DNA of 64,000 nucleotides from Spizellomyces punctatus DAOM BR117. Lineage: Eukaryota. The position numbers were made by a program, and so were the translations under genes. The notes under the pieces were generated by a model, which saw nothing but the letters and a program-made list of their open reading frames with translations, did no database searches and was not told the origin of the DNA. Shown here in pieces: positions 31,020-32,377 of the stretch. The stretch lies in assembly GCA_000182565.2 (NCBI GenBank), contig KQ257456.1; one strand, given 5' to 3'. Numbering within the stretch: the first letter of the stretch is position 1; each line of letters opens with the position of its first letter.

Positions 31020-31109
31020 GTGTTGGACAGTCACTAGTGTAGAGGTGACAGAAAATGGCACTAGCTACTACACCAGGGAATAAACCGCGCGACAACCGGT
31101 TCGGAAAAC
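31020..31109 (-). ncRNA. Fanzor omega-RNA (75-nt scaffold 31109-31035 plus flank-derived guide GTGACTGTCCAACAC)
   Basis: GTTTTCCGAACCGGTTGTCGCGCGGTTTATTCCCTGGTG...CTACACTA; stems GAACCG/CGGTTT and TGGTGTAG/CTACACTA; closely matches the SpuFz1 scaffold as I recall it. Confidence 0.85.
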
Positions 31110-31159
31110 CTAACTAACTACTACTAGGCAATTATACACGCAATACGTAACGGTTTGTT

Positions 31160-31499
31160 CTAACCGGATAATTGCCCACCACCACACACGGTCCCTACTA
31201 GGCCTTGATCCGGAACTCTTGATCGACATTGAAGCCAGAGTCGTCGCAAGAGAGTAATATCGTCAGGGAGACTCGCAAGCCGGAGGATGTTCAGTAACGA
31301 AGGCTTGGAGACTAGAACTGCATGTCAGAAGATGACCAGATGATAAGAAATGATGCCATCGGTACATACCAACCAAGCTCAACAAATGTGGCAGCATAAT
31401 AGTAGGTTTGTCAACAGATCCAACTGGTTGCTGCTGGTTCTGGCCGTTGTTGCTGTCGGGCGGACGAGGTCCTCGACACCACCACATCTGCATGCTCAT
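31160..31499 (-). CDS. Spliced small ORF (93 aa) inside ghost 1, with WCRGPRPPD motif
   Basis: ATG at 31499; intron 31369-31312 (GTATGT..CTGAC..CTAG); TAG at 31162-31160; TATA box upstream. Confidence 0.45.
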
Positions 31500-31515
31500 G
31501 ATTGACCTAGTCGCA

Positions 31516-31584
31516 ATGAGGTTGCAATGTGGGTCACTATGAGGTTGCAATGTGGGTCACTATGAGGTTGCAATGTGGGTCGCG
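31516..31584. repeat. 23-bp tandem repeat x3 inside ghost 1
   Basis: ATGAGGTTGCAATGTGGGTC(ACT/GCG) at 31516, 31539 and 31562. Confidence 0.95.
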
Positions 31585-31649
31585 ATGAGCGTTGGGCAGA
31601 TGCTTGCGAGTCGAGGATGGGTAAAGAGGAAAGAGGGAAAAGGCCCCCC

Positions 31650-31656
31650 TTTTATA
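31650..31656 (-). promoter_or_regulatory. Putative TATA box of ghost 1 internal transcript
   Basis: TATAAAA followed by a pyrimidine-rich tract; a TATA box sits at the equivalent position in ghost 2. Confidence 0.55.
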
Positions 31657-32377
31657 GACCTTTGGCATGCGCCTCACCGCAGTTTAAAAAAAAAACATTA
31701 GCATGCATGCCACACCGCTTTGAGCGATAGAGGGGGTTCTGATTATGCGATATGATTAACCGGATTAATCCGGATAATAATGGGTCCTAGTGCCATTTTC
31801 AATCACCTCCACACTATGATATTTGCAAAGTGAACATCACTTTTATGATACCTTTTGGGCGTAACGTTTTTGGACAAACAGCCGAATCGTCCATATCATA
31901 GGGCTTGGAAGAATTGGCTCTTACCGGAGGAATTGGCTGGTGCCTCGCGTCACATTATTGCCAACATTCGGTATCCATGTCCCAACACGAGCACGAAGCG
32001 GGTTCAGAGGAGAGAGAGTCAGTTCCAGCGATTGACTGTGAAGCCGCCTATTAAAGAGTAGTTTGAGAATCAGAGCTCAATTGCTGTATCATGATCAATC
32101 ATGTATATAGTATGTCAAAATTTTAGTTTAGTTTAGTTGCTGGAGCTGTTATTTTCTGTGTTACCAAGTATGTAGAAACGTCATTCACCATTATGAATTC
32201 CTTCCGCGATCATTCGTCCTCCAAGCACATTGCCCAGCGATCACTCCCAACTCTCCGCTGATTATGTACAGTAGTCATTGTGCTTATCTCCCAAAAATAA
32301 CTCTTTTTATTTTTCCCTCAAATTGCCTCCTTTACATTTTGATAAGTGGATGGCTAATAGGTGGTGGAAAGTAATGC

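Follow-up and report, generated by a model that had tools for sequence, protein, structure and literature searches.

Can a short element that encodes no protein supply a guide to an RNA-guided nuclease made elsewhere in the same genome? The question is raised by a locus close to the middle of a 64,000-nucleotide stretch of the genome of Spizellomyces punctatus DAOM BR117 (contig KQ257456.1; the whole of this stretch is called the window below), where an original prediction, working from the letters of the DNA, placed a nuclease-free element with terminal inverted repeats and an intact omega-RNA related to that of the Fanzor (Fz) nuclease SpuFz1.

The literature already provides a frame for such a locus. 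In S. punctatus DAOM BR117, 42 loci carry full-length (19) or partial Fz genes, and S. punctatus also has 134 'ghost Spu-1 elements' in which the inverted repeats are kept and the ORF is absent (Saito et al. 2023, PMC10432273). As described there, the repeats of a ghost element are 30 nt long, its conserved body measures about 550 nt, and a CA is conserved upstream of the 5' repeat; its right end is a 75-nt region resembling the scaffold of Fz loci. The native transcripts are discrete species of 88-90 nt, consisting of the scaffold and 14-15 nt of variable flank that serves as guide, and the TAM of SpuFz1 is CATA; the 75-nt ghost scaffolds of four loci supported SpuFz1 editing in human cells (PMC10432273). 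A catalogue of 126 unique ghost scaffolds, 74-76 nt in length, followed in 2026, with representatives being tested (PMC13434818). The original prediction took SpuFz1 to be an RNA-guided nuclease with a CATA TAM and a right-end scaffold of about 75 nt, and protein-less ghost loci to be known, and on both counts it agrees with PMC10432273.

Our essential contention is that the element at 31035-31816 is, with high probability, a ghost Spu-1 element, that is, a non-autonomous relative of the SpuFz1 transposon whose omega-RNA would be used in trans. Every feature listed in the original prediction fits the published description of these elements. The class itself is already known: it was published in 2023, a further catalogue appeared in 2026, and the locus is no new kind of system; ghost scaffolds have been catalogued and engineered since 2023. 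Its interest is twofold: a guide gene of a eukaryotic RNA-guided nuclease was correctly recognised from raw sequence alone, and the body of the element looks like a transcription unit of a kind that the main texts of the two published accounts do not describe.

Ends and junctions of the element

The element measures 782 bp (31035-31816) and is read on the minus strand; the coordinates of its parts are collected in Table 1. Its inverted ends, each of 30 nt and with 722 nt between them, are complementary at 27 of 30 positions (90%). When 30500-32400 was shuffled 30 times by mononucleotide, 30-nt inverted matches reached 23/30 at most, and the analytic chance of a match of at least 27/30 anywhere in 1.9 kb is about 2e-7. 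Each tip of the element is TA. At the left junction the minus strand passes from ...AAATATCA outside to TAGTGTGGAG inside (the inner side is also given as TAGTGTGG), and at the right junction from ...CCTCTACACTA inside (also given as CTACACTA) to GTGACTGTCCAACAC in the flank. Where ...ATCA meets TAGTGTGG at the left junction, the CA outside and the TA inside make up CATA; the chance of finding CA directly outside the 5' repeat is 1 in 16 for one locus. Repeats of 30 bp with TA ends, and a CATA at the minus-strand left junction, were both part of the original prediction, and both are borne out by these comparisons. The span that it gave, 31020-31818, can be resolved into the guide (31020-31034), the element and the CA dinucleotide (31817-31818).

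The TA of SPu-1 has been regarded as a putative target-site duplication (PMC3627910); under the target-site duplication criterion for MITEs of the Tc1/mariner type, the TA at the tips here cannot be told from the repeat itself. No Fz ORF is found within the element: all three minus-strand frames are interrupted, and 782 bp is too short for the 638-aa protein.

Table 1. Features of the ghost element, of its presumed transcript and of the second copy in the window; identities are between the two copies.
Feature	Positions	Strand	Basis or detail	Identity, copy 1 and copy 2
CA dinucleotide outside the left (5') repeat	31817..31818	-	sequence read; with terminal TA gives CATA, the SpuFz1 TAM	
Left-end (5') 30-nt terminal inverted repeat	31787..31816	-	27/30 complementary to 31035-31064	
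Right-end (3') 30-nt terminal inverted repeat	31035..31064	-	within scaffold, nt 46-75	61% (outer stem 2/right repeat)
75-nt omega-RNA scaffold	31035..31109	-	nt 1-7 free, stem 1 8-28, linker 29-34, stem 2 35-75	92% (nt 1-39)
Predicted flank-derived 15-nt guide GTGACTGTCCAACAC	31020..31034	-	sequence read	
Exon 2 upstream of scaffold	31110..31311	-	last 114 nt are 31110-31223	93% (last 114 nt); 69% (rest)
58-nt GT..AG intron (GTATGT ... CTGAC ... TAG)	31312..31369	-	108 spliced reads	77%
Exon 1 of ghost transcript	31370..31620	-	depth 20-726, spliced reads end at 31370; 31620 approximate	73%
23-nt tandem repeat, 3.4 copies	31516..31594	.		35% (region)
Candidate TATA box, TATAAAA then G6	31650..31656	-	sequence read; promoter role inferred	
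Left third of element				31-35%, not alignable
Second, diverged ghost copy (copy 2)	50691..51417	+	425 columns	83%

The omega-RNA scaffold

The 75-nt block that the original prediction had quoted for the right end is found exactly as quoted (minus strand, 31109 to 31035) and is followed directly by the flank GTGACTGTCCAACAC. The window contains a single occurrence of its first 39 nt, where 100 shuffles give an expectation of none. The identity of this block was judged at 18 nucleotides that are named by position in the cryo-EM text of PMC10432273, in a register preset by the end of the element (nt 75 = 31035). Sixteen of these match (U5, C6, C7, U16, G17, U18, C19, G20, G22, A29, C32, C34, U35, G37, A72 and A75), with a P of about 3e-7. 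The two misses, C40 and G70, are the partners of a single pair that is U40-A70 here, and pairing is kept; moreover, this part of the scaffold is described as dispensable (PMC10432273). The original prediction had also proposed that the terminal stem covaries, and one of the two pairs that it gave agrees with this exchange. Among all other positions in the window, on both strands, the next-best sites (25207 and 20521) carry 14 of the 18 nucleotides and are otherwise unlike the scaffold.

In the predicted fold, nt 1-7 are free, stem 1 spans nt 8-28, a 6-nt linker follows at nt 29-34, and stem 2 occupies nt 35-75, interrupted by a bulge of 3 nt (nt 46-48). The outer hairpin and the 3' strand of stem 2 both come from the inverted end in this fold, as had been claimed when the repeat was said to form the 3' strand of the terminal stem. 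The published scaffold has a linker at A29-C34, and the stem 2 of ghost type is marked by a 3-nt bulge that replaces an 8-nt hairpin loop (PMC10432273); the predicted fold gives the published layout, linker included, and its 3-nt bulge may be the one of ghost type.

Could the likeness to the SpuFz1 scaffold be a coincidence, the element being an unrelated MITE? One result points in that direction, namely the folding energy of the scaffold, which is unremarkable (z-score -1.3, with 20 of 200 shuffles folding equally well or better) and which we count against the ghost reading. Agreement at 16 of 18 nucleotides in a preset register is nonetheless a result that we count as refuting coincidence, and the CA/TA junction, the 30-nt repeats, the 75-nt length and the position of the linker all agree with PMC10432273 as well. 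A chance resemblance is, in our judgement, hardly credible, and we continue with the block as a SpuFz1-type scaffold.

A comparison of the two copies in the window for covariation found none of 48 predicted pairs altered on both sides, which also counts against the ghost reading. A covariance model built from the two scaffolds and run over the whole window with filters off scored only its training copies, with 100.7 bits (31035-31109) and 96.9 bits, the next match being the left repeat at 14.2 bits. Rfam (E up to 1, 29000-34000) placed no family over the scaffold; its hits, all at other places, were a tRNA and weak matches of rRNA or snoRNA type. A scan of metagenomes with a 25-base scaffold pattern returned 0 matches; with a 19-base pattern, five contigs were found that are alike over 20-27 nt around the pattern alone, and these were set aside as chance matches.

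A second copy in the window

A second, diverged ghost copy lies on the opposite strand of the window (Table 1). It has a 74-nt scaffold at 51344-51417, followed by a predicted guide, TTAAATTCTCCGATA, at 51418-51432. Fifteen of the 18 named nucleotides match in this copy, which shares the U40-A70 pair with copy 1 and has a one-base deletion at the position aligned with G22. Its left end is degenerate, with GA in place of the expected CA, and no inverted repeat was detected at this copy.

Conservation of the body, as judged from the two copies in the window, is markedly uneven and is greatest in the 5' part of the scaffold and in the 114 nt that precede it. The intron of copy 1 has a 66-nt equivalent in copy 2 (51081-51146, plus strand), with the GTATGT, CTGAC and TAG signals present in both, and the candidate TATA box has a counterpart at 50857-50871, TATATAAA followed by C7. 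Inside copy 1 there is a 23-nt tandem repeat, whose 3.4 copies are 94% matching; copy 2 is without it.

Transcription and splicing

Four public runs were placed on 30700-32100, and the principal evidence comes from run X10, which is recorded as RNA and of which about 6% was read, as raw reads of 60 nt. In 108 X10 reads, with 13 different start positions, a joint between 31311 and 31370 skips 31312-31369. The skipped piece is bounded by CT..AC on the plus strand, equivalent to GT..AG on the minus strand, and thus the RNA is minus-sense, like the scaffold. The bin of the intron has a depth of 6, whereas its neighbours have 228 and 726. For a second run, X1, RNA is no more than a guess; the spliced form is found in its contigs, and one of them crosses the 5' boundary of the scaffold (31057-31144). 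Runs X4 and X5 were left out of the expression evidence because they resemble DNA at low coverage, having a flank depth of 2-2.6, repeats at 300-480 and unspliced intron contigs. The root-metagenome runs X2 and X3 (share 0.04) likewise form no part of that evidence.

The mean minus-sense depth of X10 is 35,912 and 20,558 across 31123-31216, and 10,458 (31076-31122) and 3,938 (31029-31075) over the scaffold; it then drops to 57 in the bin that holds the guide (30982-31028) and to 1.8 at 30935-30981. Minus-strand transcription of the family thus all but ceases within some 50 nt beyond the right end. On the other side, in the flank at 31828-32100, depth is 0-1. Plus-sense depth over the scaffold is 74 and 63, roughly 50 to 170-fold below the minus-sense. 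The peak lies upstream of the scaffold and not on it, which we count against the ghost reading.

These depths have to be read at the level of the family. Of 84,175 placed X10 reads, 81,230 fit only partly and therefore derive from other copies, which means that depth is inflated wherever the family is conserved; the bin past the right end is the only one to inform on this locus, and there a 15-nt extension and a somewhat longer one look alike. X10 is not recorded as a small-RNA library, and the ends of an 88-90-nt species lie below the resolution of the bins.

Two further groups of reads are of note. A set of 4,750 X10 reads share the conserved block 31115-31223 and continue into other sequence at 31115; the 16-nt continuation matches neither of the ghost copies and is found nowhere in the window, so that an abundant RNA carries the conserved block without the scaffold. 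Plus-sense reads with a mean depth of 73-169 are confined to 31593-31686, in the region of the candidate promoter, and may represent a short divergent or antisense transcript.

The ghost body as a possible transcription unit

The arrangement of these features may point to a function for the body of the element beyond that of filling the space between two repeats. Minus-sense X10 depth is 5 over the candidate TATA box (31640-31686) and climbs downstream, first to 40 and next to 68, and the strand of splicing is that of the scaffold. Exon 2 of copy 1 ends with TAG codons in all three frames just before the scaffold. The longest spliced ORF has about 93 aa; both copies keep it open, yet its middle lies in different frames in the two, and its exon-2 part had no relatives in the protein collection searched. 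The transcript was treated as non-coding. In the 121 conserved nt that precede the scaffold, no significant structure was predicted (z-score -0.5, with 55 of 200 shuffles folding as well) and no pair changed on both sides. A scan for bacterial promoters and terminators was discarded as inapplicable to a eukaryote.

We propose, tentatively and as something a little short of probable, that the ghost body is a transcription unit of its own, in which a TATA box drives a non-coding transcript, a 58-nt intron is spliced out and the 3' end is trimmed to the omega-RNA. On the same tentative footing, and jointly with this model, ghost elements might be self-contained expression cassettes for guide RNA and not mere relics of deletion; the 114 nt before the scaffold would then be a leader with a processing or stabilising role. 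Supplements aside, the main text of PMC10432273 makes no mention of an intron or of splicing in the ghost body, and that of PMC13434818 no mention of an intron, splicing, a TATA box or a native promoter. A spliced, TATA-driven unit looks like the one addition that this locus makes beyond those main texts. If such a transcript were confirmed, it would bear on how eukaryotes express and mature omega-RNAs, and a spliced guide unit would likewise bear on the fact that ghosts outnumber nuclease genes by about 7 to 1 (134 against 19 full-length Fz loci).

The same element could be expressed differently, with the omega-RNA as a short transcript in its own right, started from a TATAAT, and the long spliced RNA as a separate product. 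A motif of this kind is present on the minus strand (31130 to 31125), about 16-30 nt upstream of the first nucleotide of the scaffold and inside the block that is 93% conserved, and a discrete species of 88-90 nt has been reported (PMC10432273). An independent start at this point accords poorly with the depth just upstream of the 5' end of the scaffold, which is above that on the scaffold itself (35,912 against 10,458), and with the X1 contig (31057-31144) that spans the 5' boundary; nor does a T-run terminator follow the guide in either copy. We think a separate short transcript rather unlikely, and we retain trimming from the spliced transcript as the working model.

A model for the action of the locus

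The RNA of this locus would consist of the 75-nt scaffold and about 15 nt of flank, GTGACTGTCCAACAC, and would be matured from the 3' end of the longer TATA-driven, spliced and non-coding transcript that is proposed to fill the ghost body. It would be bound in trans by SpuFz1 made at a full-length locus, and the complex would then recognise CATA followed by GTGACTGTCCAACAC and cut CA-TA-GTGACTGTCCAACAC. This sequence is present only at a site that is unoccupied or has been precisely excised, because it is there that CA, a single TA and the right flank are joined. Repair of the cut empty site from an occupied copy could restore the element or allow it to spread. In published work, scaffolds of this ghost family load SpuFz1 and direct cleavage beside CATA. 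Supply of guides in trans to Fz from full-length loci was already proposed in the Discussion of PMC10432273; that the present locus supplies a guide in this way, and that the empty site is its target, is what we infer here. The predicted target, CATA and the guide, is absent from the window, which is to be expected, yet the window accordingly shows no present target.

Much of this would also be compatible with a decaying, MITE-like, TA-flanked element that has merely inherited its omega-RNA, the RNA being made while its guide does nothing in the fungus, with neither loading in vivo nor cutting nor homing. The degenerate left end of copy 2, and its GA in place of CA, indicate that copies do decay; the RNA evidence that is specific to this locus is thin, and the window is without a target. 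The Discussion of PMC10432273 states that no transposase was found and that ghost guides have had no genetic test in the fungus. Inheritance without a role does not readily explain why identity is so much higher in the half of the scaffold that contacts the protein (92%) and in the preceding 114 nt (93%) than elsewhere (31-77%), or why every one of the 16 named contact nucleotides that lie outside the dispensable C40-G70 part is retained. It must also accommodate strong transcription of the family on the scaffold strand and the finding that ghost scaffolds function with SpuFz1 in cells (PMC10432273, PMC13434818). Simple decay seems to us improbable, and we favour a ghost Spu-1 element whose guide would be used in trans.

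Relationship to known elements

In its structure the element differs in nothing essential from the published ghost Spu-1 elements, with which it shares the 30-nt repeats, the CA, the lack of an Fz ORF, the 75-nt scaffold and the guide read from the flank, and may share the 3-nt bulge that is predicted in its stem 2 (PMC10432273, PMC13434818). At 782 bp it is longer than the published conserved body of about 550 nt, and part of the excess is explained by the 23-nt tandem repeat. The repeats of ghosts and of Fz loci differ at seven positions according to PMC10432273. A canonical Spu-1/SpuFz1 locus is about 2.1 kb long and contains one ORF of 638 aa, and it is this nuclease ORF that is missing here; the two agree in their inverted ends, in the CA and the CATA logic, in scaffold length and at 16 of the 18 named nucleotides, whereas C40-G70 is U40-A70 and the outer part of stem 2 differs.

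There are analogues among TA-flanked miniature elements of the Tc1/mariner type, which are likewise short, lack an ORF and have terminal inverted repeats with TA ends. Unlike them, the present element contains a guide-RNA gene, and no matching transposase is known in this genome. Another parallel is offered by the TnpB elements of the bacterial IS200/IS605 family, among which nuclease-less derivatives retain the ends and the guide RNA alone. As here, their omega-RNA has a scaffold at the right end, a guide read from the flank and a TAM in the left flank, and the target is re-created at the empty site. IS200/IS605 elements have subterminal hairpins, whereas the element described here has inverted ends with TA and a eukaryotic host. 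The RNA also differs in lying within a spliced transcript with a candidate TATA box, which is a eukaryotic mode of expression.

Surrounding sequence

The neighbourhood of the element is that of ordinary eukaryotic host genes. All 17 ORFs of at least 250 aa in the window are of this kind, and none contains a transposase domain or a TnpB/Fanzor domain; they include MINDY-3/4, an XPG-like protein, TRM13, UvdE, a RING finger protein, an ABC transporter, a Core-2/I-branching enzyme, a GATA factor, a CRAL/TRIO protein and a dual-specificity phosphatase. Two runs of N, at 21259-21455 (197 bases) and 56333-56432 (100 bases), are assembly gaps or masked stretches. Two weak, below-threshold matches resembling LSU rRNA fall within 32741-32955, and a tRNA-Ser(GCT) gene is situated at 32377-32460 on the plus strand, about 560 bp from the left end of the element.
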